From: an uncultured bacterium
GTDB lineage: Bacteria; Edwardsbacteria; AC1; EtOH8
Direction: 5' to 3'
DNA: 64,000 nt
NCBI GenBank assembly: GCA_964588285.1
Contig: CAZPNX010000001.1
Coordinates: 143-64,142 of the forward strand
Positions 4,795-50,760 of the stretch are shown piece after piece. The position numbers were made by a program, and so were the translations under genes. The notes beneath the pieces were generated by a model. It was not told where the DNA came from and did no database searches. It saw nothing but the letters and a program-made list of their open reading frames with translations. Each line of letters starts with the position of its first letter. Position 1 is the stretch's first letter.

Positions 4795-4803
4795 GGTGGC
4801 CTT

Positions 4804-5535: not shown

Positions 5536-5579
5536 TCTTCCTTACCATACAATCTTGTTTTAACTACGATAACATTCAG

Positions 5580-7373: not shown

Positions 7374-7383
7374 GATCCACGCC

Positions 7384-8661: not shown

Positions 8662-8668
8662 AAAGCGT

Positions 8669-13208: not shown

Positions 13209-13209
13209 G

Positions 13210-15512: not shown

Positions 15513-16764
15513 ATTGAAACTACTATTTTTAACCCACTACTTTCCACCCGAGGTGGGCGCCCCTCAATCGCGCATTGATGAGATAGCGAAGGTACTAGCA
15601 AAGCGGGGCCATAAGGTATCGGTGCTGACCAATTTCCCCCATTATCCCGATGGTGTCATCAAAACGCCTTATCAAAGGGCTGTACTGCTTAAAGAGTCCA
15701 GGGGCGAGGTGGATGTAATCCGTTCCTATGTCTGGGCCAGACCCAATAAGGGTTTCGCCAGCAGAATGGCCAATCATCTTTCTTTCTGCATTACCTCGTT
15801 GGTAGCGGCATCCAAACTGCCGCCGTGCGATGTGGTGGTGACGGAATCGCCGCCCCTGTTCCTGGGATTCAGCGGTTGGATAATTTCCCGGATGCTGGGC
15901 GCCTCCCATATTTTCAATGTGGCCGACGTCTGGCCACAATCGGCAGTGGAAATGGGTGCCCTAACCAACCGAACAGCCGTTACGATGGCAGAATGGTTGG
16001 AACGTTTCATCTACGACCATAGCCATCTGATAACGGTGGTCACTGAGGGCATCAGAAAAGACCTGTTGGCCCGCGGGCTGGCGACAGAGAAGGTAGCCAC
16101 CCTGACCAATGGGGTGGACCTGGATTTTTTCCAGTCTCAGGGAAAGGGTTTGTCTGTTAAAAATGAACTAAATCTATCCGGCAAGTTCATAGCATTATAC
16201 GCCGGCACTCATGGGATGGCCCAGGGCTTGCATGTGGTGCTTAGAGCCGCAGGAATATTGGCAAACGAACCGAATATTGTTTTTGTGATGGCGGGCGACG
16301 GTGCCGAAAAAGCGGGGCTGGTGGAAACTGCCCAAAAAATGAACCTAAAAAATGTGAGATTTCTGAATACTTGGCCAAAATCACGCATGCCCGAGTTGCT
16401 CGAGGCCGCCGATGTCTGTCTGGTGACTCTGAGGAAACTGCCGGTTTTTCGACGGGCACTTCCGTCCAAGATGTACGAGGCTATGGCCATGGCCAGGCCT
16501 CTGGTTGTTTCCGCCGAGGGCATGGCCGCCGAATTGGTGGACTCAACCAACTGCGGAATGGCCATCCCTCCGGAAAATCCGGAAAAGCTTGCAGAAGCGG
16601 TTAAAGACCTGTTTCGGAATCCCTCTAAAAGAGCCAAAATGGGGCTTCGGGGAAGGAATTTGGTGGAGAGGGAATACTCACGTGAAAAGATTGCCGGGAA
16701 ATGGGAGCGCCTGCTGGCGGAAACGGCTGAGAGAATAGATTTGCAATCGTTGTATGGACAATGA
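15487..16764 (+). CDS. glycosyltransferase family 4 (WcaI-like)
   Basis: 'LKLLFLTHYFPPEVGAPQSRIDEIAKVLAKRGHKVSVLT' N-terminus and C-terminal GT4 region 'VSAEGMAAELVDS'. Confidence 0.8.
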   Translation: MFQIMPAIKLKLLFLTHYFPPEVGAPQSRIDEIAKVLAKRGHKVSVLTNFPHYPDGVIKTPYQRAVLLKESRGEVDVIRSYVWARPNKGFASRMANHLSFCITSLVAASKLPPCDVVVTESPPLFLGFSGWIISRMLGASHIFNVADVWPQSAVEMGALTNRTAVTMAEWLERFIYDHSHLITVVTEGIRKDLLARGLATEKVATLTNGVDLDFFQSQGKGLSVKNELNLSGKFIALYAGTHGMAQGLHVVLRAAGILANEPNIVFVMAGDGAEKAGLVETAQKMNLKNVRFLNTWPKSRMPELLEAADVCLVTLRKLPVFRRALPSKMYEAMAMARPLVVSAEGMAAELVDSTNCGMAIPPENPEKLAEAVKDLFRNPSKRAKMGLRGRNLVEREYSREKIAGKWERLLAETAERIDLQSLYGQ

Positions 16765-34855: not shown

Positions 34856-35299
34856 ATGCTGGGATTAACCAAGGACGAAAAGCTGGTCATCGTTTTCCTC
34901 AGCATCAGCCTGGCGGCGGGGAGCTTGTTGTTGCTCTATAAAAGATTTCACCCCTCCTTCGCTACCGGACTACTCCGGTCGGACAAAGTTCTGCCGGCTC
35001 CGCTTACGGATACACTGTTTTCAGAGGCATCAGATTCCCTGCTTTCCCAGGAACCGGCCGCTGTCCGGACGGAAAAAATTGGTCCCGCCCGGGTTCCCTT
35101 GGCTCCGGTAAACATCAACACTGCCGGCCAAAAGACACTGGAAGCCCTGCCGCATATCGGCCCCTCAATGGCCAAGAGGATCATCGAGTACCGCAGCGCC
35201 TCGGGCGGATTTACCAACATCGAGCAACTGGGAAGGGTCAAAGGCATCGGCCCCAAGCGTCTGGAACAGCTCAGGCAGCATGTGACGGTTGACAGATGA
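34856..35299 (+). CDS. comEA: ComEA-family competence protein (membrane-anchored helix-hairpin-helix DNA-binding protein)
   Basis: N-terminal TM 'LVIVFLSISLAAGSLLLLY'; C-terminal tandem HhH 'ININTAGQKTLEALPHIGPSMAKRIIEYR...GFTNIEQLGRVKGIGPKRLEQL'. Confidence 0.8.
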   Translation: MLGLTKDEKLVIVFLSISLAAGSLLLLYKRFHPSFATGLLRSDKVLPAPLTDTLFSEASDSLLSQEPAAVRTEKIGPARVPLAPVNINTAGQKTLEALPHIGPSMAKRIIEYRSASGGFTNIEQLGRVKGIGPKRLEQLRQHVTVDR

Positions 35300-35407: not shown

Positions 35408-37102
35408 ATGGCGTTGAAACTCGGCGATTTCCTGGTTCAGAATAAGCTGATCACCAATGATCAGTTAAATGCCGCTTTGGCCGAGCAGAAGAACTCCGGC
35501 GAGCGACTGGGCTCCTGCCTGATCAAGCTGAAGTTCATCTCCGAGGAAAAGATCACCGAGGCTCTGGGCAAGCAGTTCAACCTGCCCACGATCAACCTCT
35601 CCAATATTGAGATCGATCCCCAGATACTGAAGCTGATACCGCACGAGATGGCTCACAAGTTCCAGATCGTCCCCATATCCAAGACCGGCCGCGTTCTGCA
35701 GCTGGCCATGTCCAACCCAGCCGACGTCTTTACCATCGACAACATCCAGTTTCTTACCGGACTGGAGGTAAAACCGGTGGTCTGCGCCGAGACCGCCATT
35801 GCCCGGGCGGTGGACAAGCTCTACGCCGCCTCAACCGGCCTGACCGAGGCCATGAAGGCGGTGCAGGAGGAGGAGGCCGCCGAGGTGGAGTTCGTGGAGA
35901 GGGAGGCCGAGCAGAACGTCACCCAGGCCGACATCGACGCCGCCCCGGTGGTCAAGCTGGTCAACAGCATGATCTTTGACGCCATCAAGCGGGGAGCCTC
36001 GGACATCCACATCGAGCCCTACGAGAAGGTGCTGCGGGTGCGCTTCCGCATCGACGGGGTTCTTCAGGAGACCATGTCGCCTCCAAAGCGCATTGCGGCC
36101 GCGGTAGCCTCGCGCATCAAGGTGCTCTCCAAGCTCAATCTGACCGAGCGCCGCCTGCCCCAGGACGGACGCTTCTCGGTCAAATCCGGCGACCAGAACG
36201 TCGACTTCCGCGTCTCCACCATGCCCATCAAGCACGGGGAGAAAATCTGCATCCGCATCCTGCGGCAGTCCGGCCTGTCCGGGGACCTTAACAAGCTGGG
36301 CCTTCAAGGCAAACCGCTGGAAGACCTTCTCAGTGCCATTGCCAAACCTCAGGGCATGGTGCTGATCACCGGACCCACCGGTTCGGGCAAGACCAACACC
36401 CTCTACTCCTGCATCAGCCGGCTGAACACGCCCAAGGTCAACATCAGCACCGCCGAGGATCCGGTGGAATACGACATCATGGGCATCAACCAGGTAAACG
36501 TTCAGACCGAGATCGGCTACACCTTCGCTAAGGCGCTCAAGGCCTTTCTGAGGCAGGATCCCAACATCATCCTGGTGGGCGAGATCCGGGACCGGGAGAC
36601 CGGCCAGATCGCCATGGAGGCGGCCATGACCGGCCACATGGTGCTTTCCACCCTGCACACCAACGACGCCCCCAGCACCCTGAACCGCCTGATCGAGATG
36701 GAGATCCCCACCTTCCTGATCGCGGCCACGGTCATCCTGATCGAGGCCCAGCGGCTGGTGCGCACCATCTGCCCCCACTGCAAGCAGCCTGACAAGCTGA
36801 GCCCGGACGACATCGCCAAGATGGGGGTGGACCCCCAGCTTTTGGCCGGAGCCACCCTCTACAAGGGGGCCGGCTGCATGGAATGCAACCGCACCGGCTA
36901 CAAGGGCCGGGTGGGCCTGTTCGAGATCCTGCCGGTGACCCCGGCCATCCGGGCGGCCATTTTGGCCAAGGCCACCTCGGACGAGATTAGAAAGATCGCG
37001 GTCAGGGAGGGGGTGAAGCTGTTGCGCGAAGACGGACTGGACAAGGTGCGGGCCGGGATCACCACCCTGGAGGCGGTCATCGCCAAGACGGTGGTCGACT
37101 GA
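35408..37102 (+). CDS. pilB: type IV pilus assembly ATPase PilB/GspE family (paralogue 1) with MshEN-type N-domain
   Basis: Walker A 'GPTGSGKT', Asp box, His box, tetracysteine 'CPHC...CMEC'. N-domain repeats 'KLGDFLVQNKLITNDQLNAALAEQ' and 'RLGSCLIKLKFISEEKITEALGKQ' match the 24-residue c-di-GMP-binding MshEN motif. Confidence 0.9.
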   Translation: MALKLGDFLVQNKLITNDQLNAALAEQKNSGERLGSCLIKLKFISEEKITEALGKQFNLPTINLSNIEIDPQILKLIPHEMAHKFQIVPISKTGRVLQLAMSNPADVFTIDNIQFLTGLEVKPVVCAETAIARAVDKLYAASTGLTEAMKAVQEEEAAEVEFVEREAEQNVTQADIDAAPVVKLVNSMIFDAIKRGASDIHIEPYEKVLRVRFRIDGVLQETMSPPKRIAAAVASRIKVLSKLNLTERRLPQDGRFSVKSGDQNVDFRVSTMPIKHGEKICIRILRQSGLSGDLNKLGLQGKPLEDLLSAIAKPQGMVLITGPTGSGKTNTLYSCISRLNTPKVNISTAEDPVEYDIMGINQVNVQTEIGYTFAKALKAFLRQDPNIILVGEIRDRETGQIAMEAAMTGHMVLSTLHTNDAPSTLNRLIEMEIPTFLIAATVILIEAQRLVRTICPHCKQPDKLSPDDIAKMGVDPQLLAGATLYKGAGCMECNRTGYKGRVGLFEILPVTPAIRAAILAKATSDEIRKIAVREGVKLLREDGLDKVRAGITTLEAVIAKTVVD

Positions 37103-37142
37103 ACTGGGTTGCTGAACTATAATAATATAGCAAAATAGGTAG

Positions 37143-38867
37143 ATGGCACTCAAGATAGGCGACATGCTGCTCAAGGCCGGTCTGATTTCCGGCGAGCAGC
37201 TGGACAAGGCCCTCAAGGAGCAGCAAAACACCAGCGGCCGGCTGGGATCCATCCTGGTGAAGCTGGGCTTCATCACCGAGGACGAGATCGTCCAGTTCCT
37301 CTCCAAACAGTTCAACGTGCCCTCGGTCAACCTGTCGGAGTACAAGATAGACGCCGCCACCATCAAGCTGATCCCTCCCCACATCGCCCAGAAGTACGGG
37401 GTCATCCCCCTGACTCGGCTGGGCCGGGTGATCACCGTGGCCATGGTCAATCCCAACGACGTTCTGGCCATGGACGACATCAAGTTCTCCACCGGCTTCG
37501 ACGTCCGGCCGGTGGTGGCCTCGGAGGGAGCCATCTGGTCGGCCATCGACAAGCAATACGGGTCGGCCGGAATGCTGGAGGACATGATGAAGTCATTGGA
37601 CGAGGCCATGGAGTCCGAGGACGAAGCGGGGCTGGAGGTGCTGGAGGAGGAGAAGGAGGACCAGAACGACGCCGCCTCGGAGATGGCGGCCGCCATCGAG
37701 AACAGCCCGGCCGCCAAGCTGGTCAACAAGCTGATAGCCGAGGCGGTGCAGCGCAGGGCCACCGACATCCACATCGAACCCTATGAGAAGGAGATGAGGG
37801 TGCGGATGTCGGTGGACGGGGTGCTCCACGAGATCATGAACCCACCGCTGAAGATGAAATCGTCGCTGGTGGCCCGCACCAAGATCATCTCCAAGCTCAA
37901 GGTGGAGGAAAAGCGCCTGCCCCAGGACGGCCGCATCCGGATGGTGCTTCAGGGCAAACCCATCGACATCCGGGTGTCCATCGTCCCCACCGCCTTCGGG
38001 GAGAAGGTGGCCATGCGCATCCTGGACCGGAGCAACGTCTCCTTCGACTTCAAGGACCTGGGGTTCGAGGAGGGTCCGCTGAAGCACCTGATCAAGGCCA
38101 TCACCACCCCCTTCGGCATCGTGCTGGTGACCGGCCCCACCGGCTGCGGCAAGACCACCACTCTCTACGCCTGTCTGGAGTACGTCAACAAGCCGGACAC
38201 CAACGTCATGACGGCCGAGGAGCCGGTGGAATACAGCTTGGTGGGAATCAACCAGGTCCCGGTCAAGGAGGAGGGGGGCACCACCTTCGCCGCCGCCCTC
38301 AAGGCCTTCCTGCGGCAGGACCCAAACATCATCATGGTGGGCGAGATCCGGGACAAGGAGACGGCCGAGATCGCCATCCGCTCCTCTCTCACCGGCCACC
38401 TGGTGATGTCCACCGTCCACACCAACAGCGCCGCCCTGACCATCACCCGTCTGGTGGACATGGGGGTCGAGCCTTTCATGATCGCCTCGTCCCTGCTGTG
38501 CGTCGAATCGCAGCGTCTGGTGCGGAGGATCTGCCCCTACTGCAAGGAAGAGCACCGGCCGGACGAGAAGCTGACGGCCGAGTTTTTAGGCAAGCACGTG
38601 GACATGCGCAGCATGAAGTTCTACCGGGGGAGGGGCTGCGCCGAGTGCCGCAACACCGGCTACAAGGGGCGGCTGGGGCTCTACGAGATCCTGCCCATCA
38701 CTCCGGCCATCAGGGACCTGATCCTGCAGAGCGCCACCACCGAAATCATCGAGAAAAAGGCGGTGGAGGAGGGCATGCCCACTCTGCGGCGCGACGGCAT
38801 CCTCAAGGTCTCCAAGGGTCTGACCACCATCGAGGAAGTCATCAAGGAAACCGTGGCCGAGGACTAG
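37143..38867 (+). CDS. pilB: PilB/GspE-family ATPase (paralogue 2) with MshEN-type N-domain
   Basis: '[10 protein letters not shown]', 'CPYC...CAEC'. N-domain '[24 protein letters not shown]' / '[24 protein letters not shown]'. Confidence 0.9.
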
Positions 38868-38921
38868 GATTTCGCGACCACTTGTCACCAAAAAATTGAT
38901 CATTCTTTGCAAGATTAGATA

Positions 38922-40694
38922 ATGGCGCAGAACCTGGCCGAGATGCTGATGAAGATGGGCCTTTTAACCAAGGCCCAGTACGATAAAGCGGTGCTGGAGC
39001 AGAAGACGGCGGCCGAGCCTCAGGCGGCCACCTTGGTGCGCCTGGGCATGGTCACCGAGAACGTCATGACCCAGTTTCTCTCCCGCCAGTTCAACGTACC
39101 CTCCATGGACCTGTCAAACTTTCAGGTGGAGCCGGCAGTGCTGAAGCTGGTCAAGGCCGACGTGGCCAACCGCTTCCTGGCGGTGCCCATCAAGCGGTTG
39201 GGCCGCAGCCTGACGGTGGCCATGGTCGATCCCTCGGATATCTTCGCCCTGGAGGATATCAAGTTTCTCACCGGGCTGGAGGTCAAGCCGGTGGCCGCCG
39301 GCTACAACGCCATCCGCAAACTCTTGGAGCAGCATTATCCTCTGGGAAAGGACCTGACGGTCATCTCGGAGACGGCCGGAAATCTTGCCCAGATCAAGGA
39401 TCAGGTTCTGGAGGAGCTGCCCGTATCCGAACTGGCCGAGGCCGGCTCCGGGGACATGGAGATGGAGTGGGTGGACGATGGGGAGGTCGAGGAGGACGTG
39501 GACATCTCCCAACTGCAGCAGGCCGGCCAGGCCACCCCGGTGGTCAAGATGGTAAACTACATCATGACCGAGGCGGTGCGGCGAGGGGCCTCGGACATCC
39601 ACATTGAGCCCTACGAGAAACTGTTCCGGGTGCGCCTGCGTCAGGACGGGGTGCTGCAGACCCTGATGGAGCCGCCCCTGAGGATGAAGGCTCCGTTGGT
39701 GGCCCGCATCAAGGTCATGTCCAAGCTCAACGTCACCGAGAGGCGCAAGCCCCAGGATGGCCGCATCGCCCTCAAGGTGCTGGGGAAGAAGATCGACCTG
39801 CGGGTTTCCACACTGCCGGTGCTGTTCGGCGAAAAGGTGGTGATGCGTATCTTGGACGCCAGCTCCCTGACGCTGGACCTGGCCAACTTTGGCTTTACAG
39901 AGCTGGCCCTGCGCAACTTCATGAAGGCCATCCACGCCCCCTACGGCATTCTGCTGATAACCGGCCCCACCGGCTCGGGCAAGACCACCACATTGTACTC
40001 GGCCCTGTCCCAGCTGAACACGCCCGACCGCCACATTCTGACGGTGGAGGACCCCATCGAGTACAACCTTAAGGGCATAAACCAGATCCAGGCCGAGCCC
40101 CAGATAGGCCTGACCTTTGGGGCGGCCCTGAGGGCCATGCTCCGGCAGGCGCCCAATATCATCATGCTGGGCGAGATCCGTGACGGGCCGACGGCCGAAA
40201 TCGCGGTCCGGGCGGCTCTCACCGGACACCTGGTTCTATCCACCCTGCACACCAACGACGCCCCGTCCTCGGTGTCGCGTCTGATAGACATGGGCATCGA
40301 GCCGTTCCTGGTGGCCTCCTCGTGCATTCTGATCCAGGCCCAGCGTTTGGTGCGCCGCATTTGCAAACAGTGTAAGGCCCCGGCCAATGTCAACCCCCAG
40401 CTTTTGTACGACATGGGATACAAACCCGAGGACATCAAGGATGTGGCCTTCTTCAAGGGCAAAGGCTGCTCGGTCTGCAACAATACCGGATACAAGGGCC
40501 GGGTGGGTCTGTACGAGGTGATGCCCATCACCCCGGAGATACGGGAGATGATACTTACCAAGCAGGCGGTGACCACCATTCGGGCCAAGGCGGTGGAGCA
40601 GGGCATGCTCACCCTGCGCATGGACGCCTGGGGCAAGGTCAAGCAGGGGATGACCACGGTGGAGGAGATGATCCGGGAAACGGCCGAAGGCTAA
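38922..40694 (+). CDS. pilB: PilB/GspE-family ATPase (paralogue 3); N-domain MshEN motifs degenerate
   Basis: 'GPTGSGKTTT', 'CKQC...CSVC'. N-domain 'NLAEMLMKMGLLTKAQYDKAVLEQ' (LG to LA) and 'AATLVRLGMVTENVMTQFLSRQ' (leading RLG lost). Confidence 0.9.
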   Translation: MAQNLAEMLMKMGLLTKAQYDKAVLEQKTAAEPQAATLVRLGMVTENVMTQFLSRQFNVPSMDLSNFQVEPAVLKLVKADVANRFLAVPIKRLGRSLTVAMVDPSDIFALEDIKFLTGLEVKPVAAGYNAIRKLLEQHYPLGKDLTVISETAGNLAQIKDQVLEELPVSELAEAGSGDMEMEWVDDGEVEEDVDISQLQQAGQATPVVKMVNYIMTEAVRRGASDIHIEPYEKLFRVRLRQDGVLQTLMEPPLRMKAPLVARIKVMSKLNVTERRKPQDGRIALKVLGKKIDLRVSTLPVLFGEKVVMRILDASSLTLDLANFGFTELALRNFMKAIHAPYGILLITGPTGSGKTTTLYSALSQLNTPDRHILTVEDPIEYNLKGINQIQAEPQIGLTFGAALRAMLRQAPNIIMLGEIRDGPTAEIAVRAALTGHLVLSTLHTNDAPSSVSRLIDMGIEPFLVASSCILIQAQRLVRRICKQCKAPANVNPQLLYDMGYKPEDIKDVAFFKGKGCSVCNNTGYKGRVGLYEVMPITPEIREMILTKQAVTTIRAKAVEQGMLTLRMDAWGKVKQGMTTVEEMIRETAEG

Positions 40695-40789: not shown

Positions 40790-41863
40790 ATGATCACCCT
40801 GCAGCAGCTTCTGGAGGAACTGATCCAAAAGAAGGCCACCGACCTCCACCTGACGGCCGGGGTGCCCCCGGTTTTCCGCATCGACGGGGAGCTGGTCCAG
40901 TCCAACCACGAGATCATGACCCCGCAGATGACCGAGCAGCTGGCCTACAGCATTCTTACCGACCAGCGGAAAAAGCGCTTTGAAATGGAAAAGGAACTGG
41001 ACCTGTCCATAGGCATCACCGGCCTGTCGCGATTTAGGGGCAACGTCTTCCTGCAGCGGGGCGGGGTGGCCATGGCCCTGCGCACCATTCCCTGGGAGAT
41101 CCGCTCCTTCCAGGCCCTGGGTCTGCCTCCGGTGGCGGCCGAGCTGTCCGACAAGCCCAAGGGGCTGGTGCTGGTGACCGGGCCCACCGGTTCCGGCAAA
41201 TCCACCACCCTGGCCACCATGCTGGACAAGGTCAATTCCGAGCGCCGCTCCCACATTCTGACAGTGGAGGACCCCATCGAATATATGCACCACCACAAGA
41301 AGTGCATCGTCAACCAGCGGGAATTGGAGTCAGACACCAAGAGCTTCGGAAACGCCCTGAAGTACGCCCTGCGCCAGGATCCGGACGTGGTGCTGATAGG
41401 CGAAATGCGGGACCTGGAAACCATCGAGGCCGCTTTGCGCATCTCGGAGACCGGGCACCTGACCTTTGCCACCCTGCACACCAACTCGGCCATGGAGTCC
41501 ATCCACCGCATCATCGACGTCTTCCCGCCGCACCAGCAGTCACAGGTGCGGGCCCAGCTGGCCTTTGTGCTGGAGGGGGTGATGACCCAGCAGCTGGTGC
41601 CTATGACCCGCGGGGGCCGCTGTCTGGCGTTGGAGATCATGATCTGCACCCCGGCCATCAAAGCCCTGATCCGCGACGACAAGGTTCACCAAATCTACTC
41701 CCTGATGCAGGCCGGCCAGAAGTACGGCATGCAGACCATGAACCAATCACTGTTCCAGCTGTTTATGGACAAGAAGATTTCTTTAGACACGGCCCTGGAT
41801 TACTCTCCGGCTGTGGAAGAGCTGGATCAGATGATCAAGCGGAGAACGGCAAACGCGGTGTGA
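40790..41863 (+). CDS. pilT: twitching motility retraction ATPase PilT
   Basis: Lacks the GspE N-domain. 'ATDLHLTAGVPPVFRIDGEL', Walker A 'GPTGSGKSTT', 'AIKALIRDDKVHQIYSLMQAGQKYGMQTMNQSL' PilT C-terminal motif. Confidence 0.9.
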   Translation: MITLQQLLEELIQKKATDLHLTAGVPPVFRIDGELVQSNHEIMTPQMTEQLAYSILTDQRKKRFEMEKELDLSIGITGLSRFRGNVFLQRGGVAMALRTIPWEIRSFQALGLPPVAAELSDKPKGLVLVTGPTGSGKSTTLATMLDKVNSERRSHILTVEDPIEYMHHHKKCIVNQRELESDTKSFGNALKYALRQDPDVVLIGEMRDLETIEAALRISETGHLTFATLHTNSAMESIHRIIDVFPPHQQSQVRAQLAFVLEGVMTQQLVPMTRGGRCLALEIMICTPAIKALIRDDKVHQIYSLMQAGQKYGMQTMNQSLFQLFMDKKISLDTALDYSPAVEELDQMIKRRTANAV

Positions 41864-42227: not shown

Positions 42228-43442
42228 ATGCCAGTCTACGTATGGAAGGGGCGGGACTCCAAGTCCGGCATTGCTACCGGCGAGATGACGGCCGAAAACG
42301 AGGCGGCAGTCATCGAGGCCCTGCGCAAACGGAACGTCATCGTCTCCTCGGTCAGGCCCAAGCCCAAAGAGCTGAAGATGCCGGGCTTCATGGCCAGCAA
42401 GGTCTCCAGCCGGGACCTGTCCATCTTTACCCGCCAGTTTGCCACCATGATCAACGCCGGCCTGCCCCTGGTGCAGTGCCTGGAGATCCAGGCCGCCCAG
42501 CAGGAGAGCCCGGTGTTCAAGAAGGTTATCGAACAGGTGAAAACCGACGTCGAGGGCGGCTCCACCTTGGCCGAGGCCCTTAAGCGGCAGAAGCAGGTCT
42601 TCTCCGAGCTATACATCAACATGGCCGCGGCCGGAGAGGCCGGCGGTATTTTGGACAACATCCTTCTCCGCCTGGCGGTCTACTTGGAGAAGGCCGAGGC
42701 CCTGGCCCGGAAGATCAAAGGGGCCATGATCTACCCGGTGATCATGATCTGCGTGGCCATCGGCGCGGCCGCGGTGCTCTTGATATTCGTCATCCCCATC
42801 TTCGAGAAAATGTTCGGCGAGATGGGGGCCAAGCTGCCGGGCCCAACCCTGTTTGTCATCGGGCTTTCCAAATTTCTTCAAAAATATATAATTCTGATAA
42901 TTGCCGTCATTGCCGGAGCCATCTTCGCCATTCGCAACTGGTACAAAACAGACAAGGGCCAGTTATTTTTAGACCAGTTGATGCTGAAGATTCCCATTCT
43001 GGGAGACCTGCAGCAGAAATCTTCCATCGCCCGGTTCGCCCGGACCCTGGGGACGCTCTTGGCCTCGGGCGTGGCCATTTTGGACGCTCTGGAGATCACG
43101 GCCAAGACGGCCGGCAACCGGGTGGTCCAGGACGCCATTTTGTCGGCCCGCAAGTCAATCGGCGGCGGCGAGACCATCTCGGCGCCTTTAAAGACCATGA
43201 AGATCTTCCCGCCGATGGTGGTCCAGATGATCTCGGTGGGCGAGGCCACCGGCGGCCTGGACGAGATGCTCAACAAGATCGCCGATTTCTACGACGAGGA
43301 GGTGGACACCGCGGTGGAGAACCTGACCGCGGCCATGGAGCCCATGATCATGGTGGTTTTGGGCTTGGGCATTGGCGGCCTGGTGATCTCCATGTATCTG
43401 CCCATCTTCACCATGACCTCGGCCCTGATGGGCGGTAAATGA
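42228..43442 (+). CDS. pilC: type IV pilus platform protein PilC (GspF family)
   Basis: Duplicated GspF domains, 3 TM helices, 'MPVYVWKGRDSKSGIATGEMTAENEAAVIEALRKRNV' N-terminus. Confidence 0.9.
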   Translation: MPVYVWKGRDSKSGIATGEMTAENEAAVIEALRKRNVIVSSVRPKPKELKMPGFMASKVSSRDLSIFTRQFATMINAGLPLVQCLEIQAAQQESPVFKKVIEQVKTDVEGGSTLAEALKRQKQVFSELYINMAAAGEAGGILDNILLRLAVYLEKAEALARKIKGAMIYPVIMICVAIGAAAVLLIFVIPIFEKMFGEMGAKLPGPTLFVIGLSKFLQKYIILIIAVIAGAIFAIRNWYKTDKGQLFLDQLMLKIPILGDLQQKSSIARFARTLGTLLASGVAILDALEITAKTAGNRVVQDAILSARKSIGGGETISAPLKTMKIFPPMVVQMISVGEATGGLDEMLNKIADFYDEEVDTAVENLTAAMEPMIMVVLGLGIGGLVISMYLPIFTMTSALMGGK

Positions 43443-43687: not shown

Positions 43688-45904
43688 ATGAACCTTAAAA
43701 CCCCGTTTGCCGGCAATATTTCCTGGCTGGTTCGGTTGGGGCTTATGGTCCTGCTCCTGACCAGCGCGGCCGCCCTGGGCCGAATGGGCGTTCTTTCGAT
43801 CCGGCTGGGATGGGCTTTGTTGTTCAGCGCCGTATATCTGGCGGCCACCGCCGGACTGGCCGTCTGGAGGCGTCCGGATCTGAGGGCTGCAGCCGATTAC
43901 GCTCACATTTTGCTGGATATTTTATGGATTTTCGCCTTCATCCGGGCCGTGGGCGGGGCAGAAAGCCCGTTCTCACTGCTCTTCTTCCTGACCATCATCC
44001 AGGCGGCCAACGTCCGTTTTTTACGGGGGGCCATCGGGTCGGCGGCGCTCTCCAGCTTGGCCTTTGCCCTTTTGCTAGTCATGGAGTATAAATCCTGGGC
44101 CGCCGTTCAGCAGGGGGCGGGGTCGGCCGAGCTGATGGCCGCCTTCAGGGCCGACTTCCTTTTCCGGGGATATGTCTACGCCATCTGCTTCTTTGTGGTG
44201 GCCGCGCTTTCCGGCATCCTGGCCGAGAGGCTACGCCTTAAGGGCCGCCAGCTGGAGGCGGCCGCCCGCGGCTGGGAGGAGTTCCGTCTCTCCACCGGAG
44301 ACATCCTCAAGAAAATGGGCTCCGGCCTGCTGACGGTCAACGCCAACGGCCAGGTACGCTATTGCAACCGGACCGGGGCCGAAATTTTGGGCCTAGCAGA
44401 AGACAATATCGAGGGTTTGCAGATCAGCGAGGCCTTTAAGGGGAGGAACAACGCCTTTGGTTCGATTCTGGAATCAACCCTGCGGGCCGATCTGGAGCCG
44501 CCGGATGATGAAAGCCAGAGTGCCCAGGCCTCCAAGCGCCGATTGACCGATGTCCGTCGGGAACTGATTCTGCAGCGGGAGGATGGGTCGGAAATACCAA
44601 TCGGCATAAGCACCACCACGGTGCGGGACGCCGAGGGCAGGGTGCAGGGTCTGATCGCCATTTTCCAAAACCTGACAGAGGCCAAGCGCATTGAGGGCCG
44701 CCTGCAACAGATGGAGAAACTGGAGGCCCAGAACGAGCACACCCATATATTGTTGACCATGGTCCAGCCGATGCTGGCCGGCATCGAGCAGGACATCGGC
44801 CGGGCGACCGAGCGCTTTTCCGGGGCCGAGCTTGAAGAGTTGTCCCGGGACATCGGGGCCAAGGTGGAATCGGTGCGCCGGGTGATTGAGGACTTCATGC
44901 GCTATGCCCGGATCGAGATCCCCCAGGAACGCCGTGAGGACGGGGGGAATCCGCCGTCCGAAGAGAAGGCGGTCATCGGACGTTCCCGTATTTTTCTAAA
45001 AACCATGGAGCTGGTGGGACAGGTGGCGGCCTCTGACAGCACGGTGCTGCTCCAGGGCGAGTCCGGCACCGGCAAGGAGCTGCTGGCCCGGGAGATCCAC
45101 CGGTTAAGCAAGCGGCGCCACGGGCCTTTCGTCACCATCAACTGCGCCGCCCTGCCCGAGGGTCTTTTGGAGTCCGAGCTTTTTGGGCATGTCCGGGGCT
45201 CGTTCACCGGGGCGGTGCGGGACAAGGACGGTCTGTTTAGGGCAGCCGACGGGGGCACCTTCTTTTTGGACGAGGTTTCCGAGACTTCGCCGGCCATCCA
45301 GGTCAAGCTTTTAAGGGTGCTGCAAGAGAGGGAGATCGTTCCGGTCGGCGGTTCCAAGCCCATCAAGGTGGATGTCAGGTTGATTTCGGCCACCAATGCC
45401 GTTTTGGCAGACTTGGTGGAAAAGGGCCGGTTCCGCAGCGACCTGTTCTACCGGCTTAATGTAATCCCCATAAGCATTCCGCCCCTAAGGGAGCGGGAGG
45501 ATGACATCCTGCTGTTGGCCGAGCACTTTATCGCCAAATACTGCCAAAAGACGGGAAAGCCAATGATGGGGTTTTCCGAGCGGGCCGAGAAGGCCTTAAA
45601 ATCGTATAGATGGCCTGGGAACGTCAGGGAGCTGGAGAACGCCATGGAAAGGGCGGTGGTGGTTTCAGATTCGGTCAAAATAGAATTGGAGGACCTGCCC
45701 AAGAACGTTCAGGAGGCTGGGAAGTCACAGAAACAAATCCCTGAAATCAGGGCCGGCGAAGGGACCCTGCGCGAAAAGGAGATGGAGTCCATTGTCCGCG
45801 CTCTTAGGGAGGAGAAAGGCAACAAGAAGCTGGCGGCCAAAAGGTTGGGGATACATTACGCCACGCTGTATCGGAAGATCAAGCAGTATGGGCTGGAAGG
45901 CTAA
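43688..45904 (+). CDS. sigma-54-dependent transcriptional activator with N-terminal integral-membrane sensor and PAS domain (no receiver domain)
   Basis: ~190-aa N-terminus with 5-6 TM helices, then a PAS-like region ('[22 protein letters not shown]'). AAA+ sigma54 domain '[18 protein letters not shown]', 'GSFTGA', 'GGTFFLDEV'. C-terminal Fis-type HTH '[23 protein letters not shown]'. Confidence 0.85.
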
Positions 45905-45993
45905 CATACCCACCTCGAACATGCCCTTCGGCTATGCTCAGGGCAGCGCTCGGTATATGCCACGTTCCCATCGATTCTAAGTGAACAAGGCAT

Positions 45994-46025
45994 ATTGCAA
46001 AATGCGAAAAGTTGCATTTTGCAAT
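45994..46025. promoter_or_regulatory. perfect 12-bp inverted repeat (candidate enhancer/UAS) upstream of the pilin sigma-54 promoter
   Basis: ATTGCAAAATGC-gaaaagtt-GCATTTTGCAAT, ~115 bp upstream of the -24 element. Confidence 0.45.
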
Positions 46026-46138
46026 ATAAAAGAACAGTAAGAAAATTAAGAAAACATTGCTGGAAATATCTGTGATTTATAAACTCTTTATATTCAAAGA
46101 CTAACAAAATCATAAAAATTATAAAAAACTGTTGACTT

Positions 46139-46154
46139 TGGCACTTCGATTGCA
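46139..46154 (+). promoter_or_regulatory. sigma-54 (-24/-12) promoter of the major pilin gene
   Basis: TGGCAC-ttcga-TTGCA exactly matches the TGGCAC-N5-TTGC(A/T) consensus, 67 nt upstream of the pilin ATG and directly downstream of the sigma-54 activator gene. Confidence 0.75.
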
Positions 46155-46220
46155 TTATAATTTAATGGAATTCTAACAAAACCAACAACCAACCATTTAA
46201 CACTTTAGGAGGCAAAACGG

Positions 46221-46763
46221 ATGAACAACAAAGGCTTCACCCTCATCGAGCTGATGATCGTGGTGGTCATCATCGGCATCTTGGCAGCCATCGCCATCCC
46301 CAACTTCATCTCCATGCAAAACCGGGCTAAGGAAGCCAGCGTCAAGTCTAACATGCATACAATCCAGTTGGCGGCCGAGGACTTTAGCACCATTACCGAG
46401 GGAACATATCCTTCGGACTGCGCTACAACCATAGGGCAAGTAAGAACAGTCATTTTCGGCGCTGGCGATCCATTGGCAGCCGATCCTCGCTCGCTTTGTG
46501 GCGCAGCTGCCGGCTTAACTCCTGCCGCTGCCAACAGCATGGTCCCATCCAACATGAGAAATCCGATAGTGGGCGCCAATAACGCGTTCCAGTCGGTAGG
46601 TATCAATGCGGTGCACGCTCCCGGCACTTCGGGGACAGTCGGTTTCGAATCCTTTGACAACGCGGCAGCTACACCAGCTGCGATCGGAGCTGCCGTGCGG
46701 TACGAGATTGATGGTGACGGTGTCACCGCAGTCATAGCGACTGTATTGACCTCTGGTCAGTAA
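46221..46763 (+). CDS. pilA: type IVa major pilin (PilA-like)
   Basis: Prepilin leader 'MNNKG' then 'FTLIELMIVVVIIGILAAIAIPNF' (class III signal, Glu+5). SD AGGAGG. Ala/Pro/Ser/Thr-rich C-terminal half. Confidence 0.9.
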   Translation: MNNKGFTLIELMIVVVIIGILAAIAIPNFISMQNRAKEASVKSNMHTIQLAAEDFSTITEGTYPSDCATTIGQVRTVIFGAGDPLAADPRSLCGAAAGLTPAAANSMVPSNMRNPIVGANNAFQSVGINAVHAPGTSGTVGFESFDNAAATPAAIGAAVRYEIDGDGVTAVIATVLTSGQ

Positions 46764-46780
46764 TAATCAGCTCGATGGAA

Positions 46781-46815
46781 GATGGGCCGTATTGTAAAAT
46801 ACGGCCCATCTTTTT
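46781..46815 (+). terminator. rho-independent terminator after the pilin gene
   Basis: GATGGGCCGTAT-tgtaaa-ATACGGCCCATC followed by TTTTT. Confidence 0.75.
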
Positions 46816-46901
46816 CGAAATTCACAAAATGAATTTTAGGCGGACAGGAAATCTCTCGCCTCCTTTTCTCGAGAGAAGGGGTAAGGTGATGGGTTAAATT
46901 C

Positions 46902-47276
46902 TTGGATAAAAGATTATTAGCTTCTCTAGCTGTGATCGGACTCATGTCCTGCGCCTCCGACACGCCCGAGGCCGGGGTCAAACGCTACTGGCAGGCGGTG
47001 GCCGAGGGCAATGCCGACAAAATGCTGCGCACCCAGATTTACTATCGACCGGGGATGACCTCGGAATATCTGATGACGATAAAGGACATCGAATGGCTGT
47101 ATCTGGACAGCTGTTCCACGGTCTACCAGAGCCCGGCCCGAGCCATCGTCTACTACCAGGTGGTTTTTAAAAAAAGAGGACGGGCAAAGTCAACAAGATA
47201 TGCGACCGGCACCATGGTTATTCTACGCAACAGAAAGTGGCTGGTTGGGCGGCCGGTGGGTGCGATTCGCCGATGA
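46902..47276 (+). CDS. small predicted lipoprotein, unknown function
   Basis: TTG start; signal peptide with lipobox 'LMSC'. Sits between the two pilin genes. Confidence 0.5.
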   Translation: MDKRLLASLAVIGLMSCASDTPEAGVKRYWQAVAEGNADKMLRTQIYYRPGMTSEYLMTIKDIEWLYLDSCSTVYQSPARAIVYYQVVFKKRGRAKSTRYATGTMVILRNRKWLVGRPVGAIRR

Positions 47277-47360: not shown

Positions 47361-48359
47361 ATGAAGCACGGGAACAGAAGAAAAAGCATTCTGCTCAATA
47401 AGCGGATGCAGCTTAGCCTGGTATTCAGGATACTTGGAATTTCTTTGATCAGCATCCTGCTGATTGGCGGTTGCATATATCTGACCATCTGGATCCACGT
47501 AACATCTTCGGCCTTTGCTTCCGGAAAGATGTCGATGATCCAGATTTTCGACCGAGTCCATATGTTGCTGGCAGCGGTCCTTCCGGCGGCAGTCCTCTTA
47601 GTATTGTGGATGGGATTGCACATTTCCCATTCGATACTGGGGCCGCTGGTGAGGCTGGAAAACGAGTTCAAATCCATCAGACAGAATGGCTGGCATGGCC
47701 AGCCATTGAAGTTCAGGAAAAACGACGGCTTCGCCGAGCTAGCGATGGAGTTCAACGCCATGATGGATAGTCTGCAGCCTCAGGGAAAACCCTCCATTGG
47801 CCCTACAACTCCTGCTACTGAGCCTGGGAAAGAAAAATTCAAGTACGCCGGAGGCTTCACCCTCATCGAGTTGATGATCGTAGTCGTCATTATCGGCATA
47901 TTAGCGGCTATCGCGGTCCCCAACTACATCTCTATGCGTTTGCGGGCGCTTGAGGCCTCCTTAAAAGCGAATATGCATACCCTACAATGCGTTGTCGAGG
48001 AGTTCAACACCATGGCCGACGGCACATACCCGGGCGGTCTTGATGTCAGAGTGTCTGCCGTCATTCCAGCAGGGATAAATTCGTCCATTGCCGAAGGCGT
48101 CAGGATACCACCATTCCCCGCCAATGCGCTTATAAGCCCCCATGCAGGATATGCTAACCCGTTCAACCGCGCGTCAAATGCACTAGATGACTTAGCGGCT
48201 GGACCACCAGCGGTTGCACCCAGCGGTAACGTTTATTATACAGCCTATAATCAATTAGGTAATGTGACAAACGGCGTAGAAAACGCCGCATCAAGATATG
48301 TAATAACAGCTTATGGCAATAATGCACCGCTAAGCTTAGTGTTGAGATCCGGGCAATAG
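47361..48359 (+). CDS. 2TM-HAMP module fused in frame to a type IV pilin domain (or pilin with an extraordinarily long leader)
   Basis: Residues 1-135: two TM helices plus HAMP-like 'ILGPLVRLENEFKSIRQNG...NDGFAELAMEFNAMMDSL'. Then a Pro/Thr-rich linker, then 'KFKYAGG|FTLIELMIVVVIIGILAAIAVPNY' at residue 166 (F codon at 47856). No stop codon between the two parts. Confidence 0.7.
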   Translation: MKHGNRRKSILLNKRMQLSLVFRILGISLISILLIGGCIYLTIWIHVTSSAFASGKMSMIQIFDRVHMLLAAVLPAAVLLVLWMGLHISHSILGPLVRLENEFKSIRQNGWHGQPLKFRKNDGFAELAMEFNAMMDSLQPQGKPSIGPTTPATEPGKEKFKYAGGFTLIELMIVVVIIGILAAIAVPNYISMRLRALEASLKANMHTLQCVVEEFNTMADGTYPGGLDVRVSAVIPAGINSSIAEGVRIPPFPANALISPHAGYANPFNRASNALDDLAAGPPAVAPSGNVYYTAYNQLGNVTNGVENAASRYVITAYGNNAPLSLVLRSGQ

Positions 48360-48412: not shown

Positions 48413-49357
48413 ATGCACCTACCCATCCTCCAGATCGTAAACCTCTCCAAGACCTTCCACGACTGGGAGCACCTCAGATTCCGCCCCATCCCTGTGCTCA
48501 AGAGTATCTCGTTGGAGGTGCAAAAAGGGGAGATCTTTGGCTTTTTGGGCCCCAACGGGGCCGGCAAGACCACTACCATCAAGACCCTGATGGGCATCAT
48601 CCGGCCAACCTCGGGCACGGCCCGCATCCTGGGCCATGACCTGGTGGAGCATTCCCAGGAGGTGAAAAAACGCACCGGATTCCTGCCGGAGAACCCATAT
48701 TTTTACGATTACCTGAAGGTGGGCGAGTTCGTGGAATTCTGCGGGTCGCTGTTCGGCCAGGACCGGGCTTTCCGCCGTCGACGAGCGGCCGAGCTTTTGG
48801 AGATGGTGGGCATGTCTCATGCCGCCAACCTGCCCTTGAGAAAATGCTCCAAAGGGATGCTGCAGAGGACCGGCATCGCACAGTCCCTGGTCAACGACCC
48901 CGACTTCCTGGTGTGGGACGAGCCGGTCTCGGGCCTGGACCCGATAGGGAGGAAGGAGATCAAGGACCTGATGCTGGACTTGAGAAGGCGGGGCAAGACC
49001 ATCTTCTTCAGTTCCCACATCCTGCCCGATGCCGAGGCCCTGTGCGACAGGGTGGCCATTATTATCAATGGAGAAGTGAATACCATCGGAACCCTTCCCG
49101 AACTGATGAAAGACGCGGTTTCGTGGGTTGAAATCGTGGCCGAGGACCTCAAGCAAGGCTTTAAGTACCGGGAGGCGACGGTGGAGAACGTGGCCAATCA
49201 GACAATCTTTAAGATAAAAGATATCAAGCATTTAGATAATATTCTTAAAGCGATTATTGAGAAAAAAGGCAGAGTAATCTCCGTGACCCCACAAAGGGAG
49301 AACCTGGAAACCTACTTTGCCAGGCAGGTTAAGGCCCGGGGCCGGAAGCCGGGTTGA
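48413..49357 (+). CDS. ABC transporter ATP-binding protein (ABC-2 type exporter)
   Basis: Walker A 'GPNGAGKTTT', signature-like 'CSKGMLQRTGIAQSL', Walker B 'FLVWDEP'. Confidence 0.85.
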   Translation: MHLPILQIVNLSKTFHDWEHLRFRPIPVLKSISLEVQKGEIFGFLGPNGAGKTTTIKTLMGIIRPTSGTARILGHDLVEHSQEVKKRTGFLPENPYFYDYLKVGEFVEFCGSLFGQDRAFRRRRAAELLEMVGMSHAANLPLRKCSKGMLQRTGIAQSLVNDPDFLVWDEPVSGLDPIGRKEIKDLMLDLRRRGKTIFFSSHILPDAEALCDRVAIIINGEVNTIGTLPELMKDAVSWVEIVAEDLKQGFKYREATVENVANQTIFKIKDIKHLDNILKAIIEKKGRVISVTPQRENLETYFARQVKARGRKPG

Positions 49358-49359
49358 GG

Positions 49360-49965
49360 ACCTTACCCTCTGTTCCCTCCCCCGCAGGGAGAGGGACGGC
49401 CCCTTCCCCTGCGGGGAAGGGGCCGGGGTTAGGTCAAAGGGCTGGCTGGTCGTTGAGTGCCGCCTTGTCCCGATAAAACCTACGGCCACTTGACATGCGG
49501 CGGGTGTACTTGTGCCGAGCCGGGTCGAGGCTTCGAGACGGCCGGCGGCCCCCTCTCCGGGATCGGAGAGGGCAGGGTGAGGGCATGTCCCGCTTGGTGC
49601 GCCATGCCCGAAGCTTGAGACAGGGTTCCACTGATGCCGAAAGGTTATTGTGGAGGCATTTAAGGGATAGAAGACTGGCGGGTTTCAAATTCAGAAGGCA
49701 GTCCCCTATAGGTAGATATATAGTAGATTTCGTCTGCTTCGAAGCCAAGGTGATATTGGAATTGGATGGAAGCCAGCATGCCGAGGAAGCTCAGGCCGAG
49801 AGGGATTGTGTCAGGGACGAGTGGCTGGGAAGCCAGGGGTTCGAGGTGCTTAGGTTTTGGAACACGGAAGTGATAAAGAACGTAAGTGGTGTGCTGATGA
49901 AGATAAGGGAGGCGTGCCAGCGCACCCTCACCTAAGTCCTCTCCCATCAAGGGAGAGGTGTCGAG
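49360..49965. mobile_element. DUF559 (Vsr-like endonuclease) mini-element with flanking CCCTCTCC/GGAGAGGG hairpins, inserted between the ABC ATPase and permease genes
   Basis: Hairpins at 49398-49424 (GGCCCCTTCCCC-tgc-GGGGAAGGGGCC), 49551-49572 (CCCTCTCCG-ggat-CGGAGAGGG) and 49938-49958 (CCTCTCCC-atcaa-GGGAGAGG). Inverted GGGTGAGGG (49575-49583) / CCCTCACC (49924-49931) bracket the ORF. Confidence 0.65.
49585..49935 (+). CDS. DUF559 domain protein (very-short-patch-repair endonuclease-like fold)
   Basis: 'ERLLWRHLRDRRLAGFKFRRQSPIGRYIVDFVCFEAKVILELDGSQH...DEWLGSQGFEVLRFWNTEV' is the characteristic DUF559 sequence. Start chosen at internal Met 'MSRLV'. Confidence 0.75.
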   Translation: MSRLVRHARSLRQGSTDAERLLWRHLRDRRLAGFKFRRQSPIGRYIVDFVCFEAKVILELDGSQHAEEAQAERDCVRDEWLGSQGFEVLRFWNTEVIKNVSGVLMKIREACQRTLT

Positions 49966-49992: not shown

Positions 49993-50760
49993 ATGAAACG
50001 CATACTTGCCATCGCCCAAAACACCTTCAAGGAGACGGTGCGGGACCGGATCCTCTACGGACTGGTGGTCTTCGTCCTGTTGCTGCTGCCGGGCTCCCGC
50101 CTGGTGATACCCCTGGCCATCGGCCAGGAGCTGAAAATCATGAAGGACTTCGGCTTTGCCGCCATCGCCCTGTTCGGGCTGATGATCGCAGTGGTGGTGG
50201 GCACCGCCTTGGTGCACAAGGAACTGGACAAACGGACCATCTACGTGCTGGTGGCCAAACCGGTGCGGCGCTGGGAGCTTTTGGTGGGCAAGTATTTCGG
50301 CCTGATGGCCACCATTCTGCTGGCCTTTCTGGTGATGTTCGCAGTTTTGGCGGCCACGGTGCTGTCGCTGGGAGGCAGGCTGGACTGGCTGCTGGTCCTG
50401 ACCGTGGCCGGTCTTTTCCTGCAACTGGCGGCGGTGACCGGCCTGGCCATTTTCTTTTCCACCTTGGCCTCCCCGGCCCTATCGGCCGTTTTCACCATCT
50501 GCCTTTATATCGCAGGCACGGCCGCCGATCAGCTGCGACTGTTCGCCGAGCGCATGCCGGGGACCTTCGTCAAGCTGGCGGTCAAGGGTGCCTCATATCT
50601 GGTACCCAACCTCCACCTGTGCAGCTTCCGCAACGAGGCCGTCTACGGACTGCCGGTGTCTGGGGGCAAGGTGCTGATCATGCTGGCATATATACTGATC
50701 TACACCTCCCTGGTCCTGCTGATATCCTCGGCCATCCTGGAGAGGAAGGACCTTAAGTGA
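49993..50760 (+). CDS. ABC-2 family transporter permease
   Basis: Six TM helices; 'MKRILAIAQNTFKETVRDRILYGLVVFVLLLL' is the typical ABC-2 permease N-terminus. Confidence 0.8.
   Translation: MKRILAIAQNTFKETVRDRILYGLVVFVLLLLPGSRLVIPLAIGQELKIMKDFGFAAIALFGLMIAVVVGTALVHKELDKRTIYVLVAKPVRRWELLVGKYFGLMATILLAFLVMFAVLAATVLSLGGRLDWLLVLTVAGLFLQLAAVTGLAIFFSTLASPALSAVFTICLYIAGTAADQLRLFAERMPGTFVKLAVKGASYLVPNLHLCSFRNEAVYGLPVSGGKVLIMLAYILIYTSLVLLISSAILERKDLK

Follow-up and report, generated by a model that had tools for sequence, protein, structure and literature searches.

The activator gene and its domain organisation

The window analysed here is a stretch of 64,000 nucleotides (64 kb) of contig CAZPNX010000001.1, from an uncultured bacterium of the Edwardsbacteria. 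Among its type IV pilus genes it carries, at positions 43688–45904 of the plus strand, a gene for a sigma-54 activator in which the sensor kinase PilS and the response regulator PilR are fused. The open reading frame (ORF) begins at the first ATG downstream of a stop codon and encodes 738 residues; the gene is defined by this reading frame, its translation, Pfam matches and a conserved family of relatives. A preliminary description of the same DNA had proposed a 'PilS-PilR' in one chain, with about six transmembrane (TM) helices, a PAS domain, a sigma-54 AAA+ domain and a Fis-type helix-turn-helix (HTH), without a receiver (REC) domain, and placed to control the pilin. With one amendment, concerning how the PAS and AAA+ domains are joined, this description has held up.

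The protein begins with a PilS-type six-helix membrane module (residues about 11–180; 43718–44227, plus strand), located using Pfam, hydropathy, hhalign and AlphaFold2 (AF2). The Pfam family 6TM_PilS matches residues 14–184 with 33.4 bits (cut-off 27), and Kyte-Doolittle analysis gives six hydrophobic segments, at residues about 11–31, 35–59, 69–88, 94–112, 114–133 and 158–180, with none beyond residue 200. AF2 was run on the full-length protein and on the N-terminal half separately, giving mean pLDDT values of 64 and 68, and both models have six helices in the N-terminal region. The TM prediction thus holds, rather than the hydrophobic stretch being a soluble domain. The predicted topology is N-in/C-in, which fits the lysine- and arginine-rich loops at residues 60–72, 108–114 and 180–200. 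Arg16, at the start of TM1, is invariant in the fusion family and is aligned by hhalign with a conserved arginine of PilS.

A cytoplasmic PAS domain follows (residues about 206–331; 44303–44680, plus strand), with matches to PAS_9, PAS_4 and PAS that extend over residues 206–334. The PAS_9 match covers residues 213–331, and the domain is modelled with a pLDDT of 75–87. It contains an acidic low-complexity insert (residues 262–289; 44471–44554), which is restricted to the subclade of the window and has 24% column conservation and a pLDDT below 50.

Next comes a DHp-like helical hairpin derived from HisKA (residues 332–410; 44681–44917, plus strand), identified by BLASTP, hhalign, AF2 and Foldseek and overlooked in the preliminary description, and then a variable acidic linker at the PilS/PilR junction (residues 411–428; 44918–44971, plus strand), delimited by alignment ends and pLDDT. 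In the AF2 models, helices 330–373 and 379–410 form the hairpin, residues 411–428 are disordered, and the AAA+ fold comes after them. The linker has 35% column identity and a pLDDT of 30–43 and contains proline, and its length of about 17–18 residues is conserved. The proposal that the PAS domain is fused directly to the AAA+ domain therefore needs correction: a hairpin of about 80 residues and a linker of about 18 lie between them.

The sigma-54 AAA+ domain with its lid (residues 429–683; 44972–45736, plus strand) is recognised by Pfam, by invariant motifs and by Foldseek. Sigma54_activat (PF00158) matches residues 430–595 with 229 bits, and AAA_lid_14 residues 601–683 with 100 bits. The motifs GESGTGKE (Walker A), GSFTGA and FFLDEV (Walker B) are invariant across an alignment of 23 family sequences. 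The GSFTGA variant of the loop also occurs in the unfused PilR of a related locus (L020) and in the NtrC-type regulator DVU3220 of Desulfovibrio (PMC4641369). At the C-terminus is the Fis-type HTH DNA-binding domain (residues 693–736; 45764–45895, plus strand; HTH_8 at residues 693–734, 44 bits), with 73% column identity in the fusion family. The protein therefore has the features of a bacterial enhancer-binding protein, namely an AAA+ domain with Walker A and B motifs and a GAFTGA-type loop, together with a domain for DNA binding at its C-terminus.

Pfam finds no match to Response_reg, HisKA or HATPase_c in the protein. NCBIfam gives no equivalog at its cut-off, and all of its matches are confined to the AAA+/HTH part. 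The mapped domains account for all 738 residues, so there is no hidden CA (kinase ATP-binding) or REC sequence.

The N-terminal half is derived from PilS

Outside the family, the nearest matches of the N-terminal half are true PilS kinases, with the architecture 6TM_PilS-PAS-HisKA-HATPase_c. In BLASTP comparisons with PilS kinases, the alignment runs colinearly from TM1 through the whole of the DHp, with E-values from 5e-15 to 1e-45: residues 4–417 align with residues 11–407 of the PilS kinase P0045 (E 5e-15), and the best match is the PilS of locus L022 (E 1e-45). When the fusion family is compared by hhalign with four PilS kinases, the probability is 100%, with E 7.6e-40 over 364 columns. 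The membrane module, at first described as reminiscent of PilS, is thus truly homologous to it. The hhalign alignment stops exactly at the start of the CA domain, and the alignments to PilS end near residues 408–417 of the activator.

The phospho-acceptor histidine is absent. The PilS H-box AHEIRNPL is aligned with LLTMVQPML in the activator, placing T357 at the position of the histidine. In the fusion relatives this column contains T, Q, K or A (and Glu in the divergent relative P0120, described below), and there is no conserved histidine anywhere in columns 343–365 of the family alignment. The hairpin has 56% column identity, with L355 and P361 invariant. Searched separately, the linker segments gave weak HisKA matches in 4 of 13 family members (best E 0.005), and a search of the PDB with residues 328–428 alone found the DHp of the LvrB kinase (E 0.037) amid coiled-coil noise. 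These isolated matches are weak, but the profile-profile and whole-length alignments go beyond them and settle the identity of the segment as a DHp. Foldseek, run with the AF2 model of the N-terminal half, ranks PAS-DHp kinases first (WalK, LOV-HK chimeras, VicK and YF1).

Of the features that characterise a PilS kinase, the activator has the N-terminal six-TM module with a PAS domain after it, and lacks the phospho-acceptor histidine, the ExxN phosphatase motif and HATPase_c. On this alignment evidence, the N-terminal half is homologous to PilS, and includes a DHp that has no phospho-acceptor histidine.

The C-terminal half is PilR without its receiver

Residues 426–737 of the activator are 60% identical to residues 141–451 of the L020 PilR, which is encoded beside a pilS gene; identity to the L009 PilR, also encoded next to a pilS, is 46%. 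The closest relatives of this half outside the family are all REC-containing regulators of 457–479 residues, with 57–62% identity, from related candidate phyla, and they include enhancer-binding proteins encoded in pil clusters. Alignments to PilR begin at residues 426–429 of the activator and at residues 141–159 of PilR, which is past the receiver; together with the lack of a Response_reg match, this bears out the initial view that the activator has no REC domain. Foldseek with the full-length model finds only AAA+ matches (ZraR, NtrC1, FleQ and PspF).

The activator therefore has the orthologous central and DNA-binding domains of PilR, and its gene has the expected position between pilC/pilS and pilA; what it does not have is the N-terminal REC domain with its phospho-acceptor aspartate. 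With an N-terminal half that aligns to PilS and a C-terminal half that aligns to PilR, in the place of both genes (see below), the description of the protein as PilS and PilR in one chain is upheld.

The pil gene cluster

Upstream of the activator lie an HHH_3 gene (34856–35299), three PilB-type ATPase genes (35408–40694, plus strand, each with MshEN and T2SSE domains), pilT (40790–41863, plus strand, T2SSE) and pilC (42228–43442, plus strand, T2SSF). Downstream is the gene for the major type IV pilin (46221–46763, plus strand), recognised from an N_methyl match and from its translation, which has the prepilin sequence MNNKG/FTLIELM with Glu5. It is followed by an intrinsic terminator hairpin (46772–46818, plus strand; −32 kcal/mol, z = −7.65) and a T run. 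Beyond this are a small ORF (46902–47276), a gene for a 2TM-HAMP-pilin protein (47361–48359, plus strand), and genes for an ABC ATPase (48413–49357), a DUF559 protein (49495–49935) and an ABC-2 permease (49993–50760).

The order of the pil machinery genes (PilB-type ATPases, PilT, PilC) is repeated in three other loci that carry the fusion (L003, L005 and L008). In unfused relatives (L009, L020 and L021), the order is HHH_3-pilB-pilT-pilC-pilS-pilR-pilA-ABC-ABC2. Given this conserved order in fused and unfused clusters, the activator gene fills exactly the pilS-pilR slot. The best match of both halves of the activator is one unfused PilS-PilR pair, in L022. A search for a separate cognate kinase or receiver gene, which had been suggested as a check, found none in the 64-kb window, nor within 8 kb of the fusions in L003, L005, L007 and L008. 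In a comparison of the same four loci, no protease gene is conserved beside the locus.

Several features of the cluster are of interest in their own right. The three tandem PilB-type genes (564, 574 and 590 residues) contrast with one copy in the unfused relatives; L003, L005 and L008 also have three, and L007 has two. The DUF559 gene, which is endonuclease-like, splits the ABC ATPase and ABC-2 permease genes here and in L003, and is absent from L007, L008, L020 and L021.

The 2TM-HAMP-pilin protein is a pilin paralogue in which the prepilin motif G/FTLIELMIVVV occurs at about residue 165, after a conserved extension of about 165 residues. This extension has two hydrophobic helices and a HAMP-like stretch, for which the HAMP score just misses the cut-off (22.9 against 25 bits). 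Along its full length it shares 48% identity with a protein of L007 (L007:10205-11284; E 3e-109). In L007 and L008 (L008:10555-11619) the gene lies directly 3' of the fused activator, with its own −24/−12-like element, and it was seen only in loci bearing the fusion, not in the unfused L009, L020 and L021. The HAMP-pilin protein could be a regulatory partner of the activator. An ORF in L003 (L003:11345-11773) was considered as a split-off N-terminal part of the HAMP-pilin protein, and was rejected.

Elsewhere in the window, an ORF of 1873 residues (29159–34780) has an SprA_N domain, as in the type IX secretion translocon, which fits an organism of the FCB group. A block at about 4000–16000 has a GC content of 0.48–0.51, against about 0.60 elsewhere, and is full of glycosyltransferase, Wzy and Wzz-like genes, with an asparagine synthase gene as well; this block probably represents a surface-polysaccharide island that is variable or was acquired.

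The pilin promoter and its candidate enhancer

A pattern scan of the interval between the activator and the pilin gene identifies a sigma-54 type −24/−12 promoter, TGGCACTTCGATTGCA, at 46139–46154 on the plus strand. The pattern TGGCAC-N5-TTGCA has no other match in the 64-kb window, where 0.07 would be expected by chance, and it lies 82 nt 5' of the pilin ATG. An equivalent element is found 74–82 nt 5' of the pilin ATG in L003, L005, L007, L011, L014 and L018, and one also precedes the pilin gene in L019. These related promoters were located with a relaxed GG-N10-GC scan, as the exact pattern TGGCAC-N5-TTGCW missed related promoters.

Upstream of the promoter, a motif scan gives two palindromes of the form TTGCA-N3-TGCAA (45995–46007 and 46012–46024), both of them inside a perfect 14-nt inverted repeat (45992–46027). 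They are the only two matches in 64 kb, are located about 130 bp upstream of the promoter, and form a candidate enhancer that begins about 90 bp past the stop codon of the activator. In most fusion loci the same palindrome stands 5' of the pilin promoter; in L019, which encodes P0120 in a background of 36% GC, it starts 3 nt past the stop codon. In the unfused L020 and L021 it lies just 3' of pilR. Since it is common to fused and unfused loci, this motif is most likely, on sequence comparison, the ancestral enhancer of PilR, retained after the fusion. With a sigma-54 promoter and a conserved palindrome between the two genes, the suggestion that the activator is placed to control the pilin gains support.

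The spacer between enhancer and promoter (46025–46138) is rich in A-tracts, with 21% GC and six A-tracts, and a scan of it for an IHF site gave only one-mismatch matches, so that no such site is claimed. A consensus scan also finds a sigma-70-like promoter, TTGACT-18-TATAAT, matching at 11 of 12 positions (46132–46161, plus strand).

Two side observations concern the arrangement of these elements. In L005, from a TA06 genome, about 6 kb (10246–16472) separate the activator from its pilin promoter; the intervening stretch has GT2, spermine-synthase-like and PMT_2/TPR genes, plus a HAMP-pilin gene in an uncalled gap. The adjacency of activator gene and enhancer is thus not universal. In the unfused L020 (1037–1068) and L021 (1065–1096), the interval between the HHH_3 gene and pilB holds two further TTGCA-N3-TGCAA palindromes, suggesting control of pilB as well by PilR in these loci. 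There are none upstream of the pilB genes of the window.

Distribution and origin of the fusion

Four contigs from different samples encode the identical activator protein. With the N-terminal 422 residues as query, about 40 clusters (at 90% identity) were found that have the same architecture and lengths of 707–738 residues; they are 41–75% identical over the N-terminal half, and some are named TA06 or Candidatus Edwardsbacteria. A scan using one genome per species found the fusion in nine species, including metagenome-assembled genomes of UBP2 and Edwardsbacteria. In the alignment of 23 sequences, many positions are invariant in the TM, PAS and hairpin regions too.

To count how rare the fusion is, a profile of the N-terminal half was compared with 1.84 billion cluster representatives, and the best 150 matches were examined. 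Among these, the full-length fusion architecture occurs only in P0008 (735 residues), which is the representative of the family, and in P0120 (717 residues). The other matches of 450–780 residues number 121; enhancer-binding protein motifs are present in P0120 only, 112 of the 121 carry an intact H-box, and all eight that were checked with Pfam are kinases. The fusion is therefore rare among PilS-like proteins.

P0120 (L019:110-2263) is 42% identical overall. Its H-box, DRLAGIGELAKGMLEQVREPL, is more PilS-like, with glutamate at the position of the phospho-acceptor histidine. In a neighbour-joining tree all fusion proteins form a single clade, with a bootstrap of only 26/100 for the inclusion of P0120. 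Either P0120 belongs to the family as a less derived member, or it arose by a second fusion, independent of the first. As to the origin of the activator gene itself, we consider it likely that it was produced by the in-frame collapse of an adjacent pilS-pilR pair.

Proposed mechanism and alternatives

Taken together, the protein is best read as a phosphorylation-free, membrane-integral activator of the pilin gene. To judge from its domains, it has kept through the collapse the six membrane helices, PAS domain and DHp hairpin of PilS and the AAA+ motor and Fis-type HTH of PilR. It has lost the ATP-binding domain, the phospho-acceptor histidine and the whole of the receiver, so that phosphotransfer is impossible in it.

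We propose the following mechanism. The activator would be a dimer in the inner membrane, with the DHp-like bundle holding the monomers together. Its HTH domains would bind the two palindromes (TTGCA-N3-TGCAA), which lie about 130 bp upstream of the −24 element, and the dimers would form an AAA+ ring on flexible tethers of roughly 18 residues. The A-tract spacer would bend, allowing the ring to contact sigma-54 RNA polymerase at the pilin promoter; on this reading DNA would be looped from the membrane, which the preliminary description had taken as a necessity. As the enhancer begins only about 90 bp past the activator stop codon, insertion of the activator and of its membrane-protein neighbours (PilC and pilin) would go on with the locus already close to the membrane, and the search for the target would be shorter.

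The membrane module would sense, as in PilS, the membrane pool of pilin not yet assembled, and the pilin signal would act directly on AAA+ assembly, no longer via phosphorylation of PilR. The PilS-type TM residues, including the arginine at the start of TM1, are retained in the fusion, and in a study of P. aeruginosa PilS this arginine is reportedly needed for pilin sensing. A direct interaction of PilS with PilA by way of the PilS TM segments, serving pilin autoregulation, has been reported (PMC6058289). That a hexameric AAA+ activator works while embedded in the membrane, switched directly by pilin sensed in the bilayer and acting through an enhancer about 90 bp past its own stop codon, is a tentative proposal, to which we give slightly less than an even chance.

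A number of points weigh against the proposed mechanism. The linker between the DHp and the AAA+ domain is variable and disordered, which makes a rigid helical relay of the signal unlikely, and the coupling of sensing to the ATPase is the weakest step of the mechanism. The AF2 models are of moderate confidence only, with the TM region their weakest part. The pilin sigma-54 element is overlapped by the strong, near-consensus sigma-70-like promoter, with TTGACA-18-TATAAT in the corresponding position of L003. From these patterns, the pilin gene may have dual promoters, and its transcription may not depend only on the activator. No rpoN gene was seen in the 64-kb window. Finally, in the RedR2/BtdS system, membrane binding of the sigma-54 activator is the OFF state (PMC10084136).

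This last point is in keeping with an alternative in which the membrane form is an inactive store, and a signal sets off cleavage in the acidic linker (residues 411–428) or in the membrane; this would free a soluble AAA+-HTH protein, which would act like PspF or HrpR/S and switch on the pilin promoter from the cytoplasm. The linker is suited to this, being variable, acidic, proline-containing and predicted to be disordered; besides, sigma-54 activators without regulatory domains, such as PspF, are generally active by default. However, no cleavage motif is conserved in the linker, which keeps just its length of about 17 residues, and no protease gene is conserved beside the locus in the four fusion loci compared. 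The hairpin is under constraint (its column identity and invariant L355 and P361 are noted above), which a simple tether would not need, and no internal start codon or ribosome-binding site precedes the AAA+ domain. An internal translation start giving such a soluble AAA+-HTH protein was considered separately and rejected: V429 is encoded by GTC, and there is no sequence resembling a ribosome-binding site before M440. We regard release by cleavage as the main rival, though an unlikely one, with perhaps one chance in five.

A less probable alternative still, which we would rate at about half of that, is that the activator is constitutive, and that its PilS half no longer senses anything and serves only to anchor or position the protein, at the pole or the pilus machine for instance. 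PilS is cited as depending on its TM segments for targeting to the pole (Ethier and Boyd 2000, as cited in PMC6058289), and the flexible linker offers no obvious allosteric path for a signal. A mere anchor, however, would not need conservation of the PAS, DHp or TM regions; yet the PilS-type TM residues are conserved, and the PAS and DHp-like domains keep many invariant residues (STGDIL and GSGLLT among them) across sequences that are only 41–75% identical.

It is very improbable that the activator still takes part in a phosphorelay, run by an unlinked kinase or a partner receiver: there is no receiver domain and no conserved histidine in the DHp-like segment, and the absence of kinase and receiver genes noted above covers both the window and the surroundings of four related fusions. 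Least credible of all is a functionless decaying remnant, mis-assembly or frameshift artefact joining pilS and pilR, for which nothing speaks but the unusual appearance of the protein, and which is refuted by its conservation across independent assemblies (the identical protein on 4 contigs), by the same length and architecture in about 40 clusters from several candidate phyla, by the invariant catalytic motifs, and by the coverage of all 738 residues by mapped domains.

Significance

Sigma-54 activators are regarded as soluble, and their lack of membrane segments is stressed in the surveys examined. A working membrane-integral enhancer-binding protein, if the proposal is true, would require a rethinking of AAA+ ring assembly from tethered dimers and of the way in which such a ring reaches the polymerase on DNA. 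Should the protein indeed act while embedded in the membrane, it would be, to our knowledge, the first membrane-integral enhancer-binding protein.

It would also clearly exemplify the return of a two-component system to a one-component state, and would mean that a two-component system can drop its kinase and receiver chemistry yet retain its sensor and output. The PilS membrane module could then be examined for its sensing free of the confounding effect of phosphotransfer. In synthetic biology, the protein would offer a natural model for coupling a membrane sensor directly to a sigma-54 promoter under tight control.

Comparison with known systems

The closest system is PilS-PilR itself, as in Pseudomonas aeruginosa, Myxococcus and Geobacter and in the unfused loci L009, L020, L021 and L022. 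It shares with the activator the six-TM sensor, PAS domain, DHp fold, AAA+ domain and Fis-type HTH, the position of the genes between pilC and pilA, and a sigma-54 pilin promoter; L020 and L021 also share the TTGCA-N3-TGCAA enhancer with the fusion loci. The difference is that the activator is a single polypeptide without HATPase_c, phospho-acceptor histidine, ExxN motif or receiver, and is therefore membrane-integral and not switchable by phosphorylation. Full-text literature searches found no description of a membrane-integral enhancer-binding protein or of a PilS-PilR fusion.

In ToxR, CadC and TcpP (PMC7888679, PMC6320335), a sensor and a DNA-binding output are likewise combined in one membrane protein without phosphotransfer, an arrangement in which the target DNA must come to the membrane. 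Each of these proteins combines an N-terminal OmpR-type winged helix with a single TM helix and a sensor in the periplasm; as dimers they recruit sigma-70 polymerase. Their likeness to the activator is confined to the principle of a DNA-binding membrane protein. They are not homologous to it: in the activator Pfam finds no OmpR-type winged helix or other ToxR/CadC-type features. Unlike them, the activator must form an ATP-hydrolysing AAA+ ring that acts on sigma-54 at a distance.

NifA, DmpR and many enhancer-binding proteins of Desulfovibrio and Clostridiales resemble the activator in having a sensor fused to AAA+ and HTH domains with no receiver (PMC4641369, PMC6615313). In contrast to the activator, the soluble PAS/GAF proteins of this type are cytoplasmic, and none has a kinase-derived DHp. 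The surveys of Desulfovibrio (PMC4641369) and Clostridiales (PMC6615313) describe only cytoplasmic sensors and no membrane-integral enhancer-binding protein, and emphasise the absence of TM regions.

The restraint of ring assembly has its own parallel. A dimeric N-terminal module may keep the AAA+ domains apart until a signal permits them to form a ring, and this is a likeness to NtrC1 and DctD. In those two proteins, it is a dimeric N-terminal module that restrains assembly of the AAA+ ring; there the dimerising element is a receiver with a coiled coil, whereas in the activator it would be the DHp bundle. The membrane also takes part in control in the PspF-PspA and RedR2-BtdS systems, as it would here. 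PspF and RedR2, however, have a distinct protein as their membrane partner and are switched off when bound to the membrane, whereas in the fused PilS-PilR the membrane module belongs to the activator itself, which would be active in the membrane.

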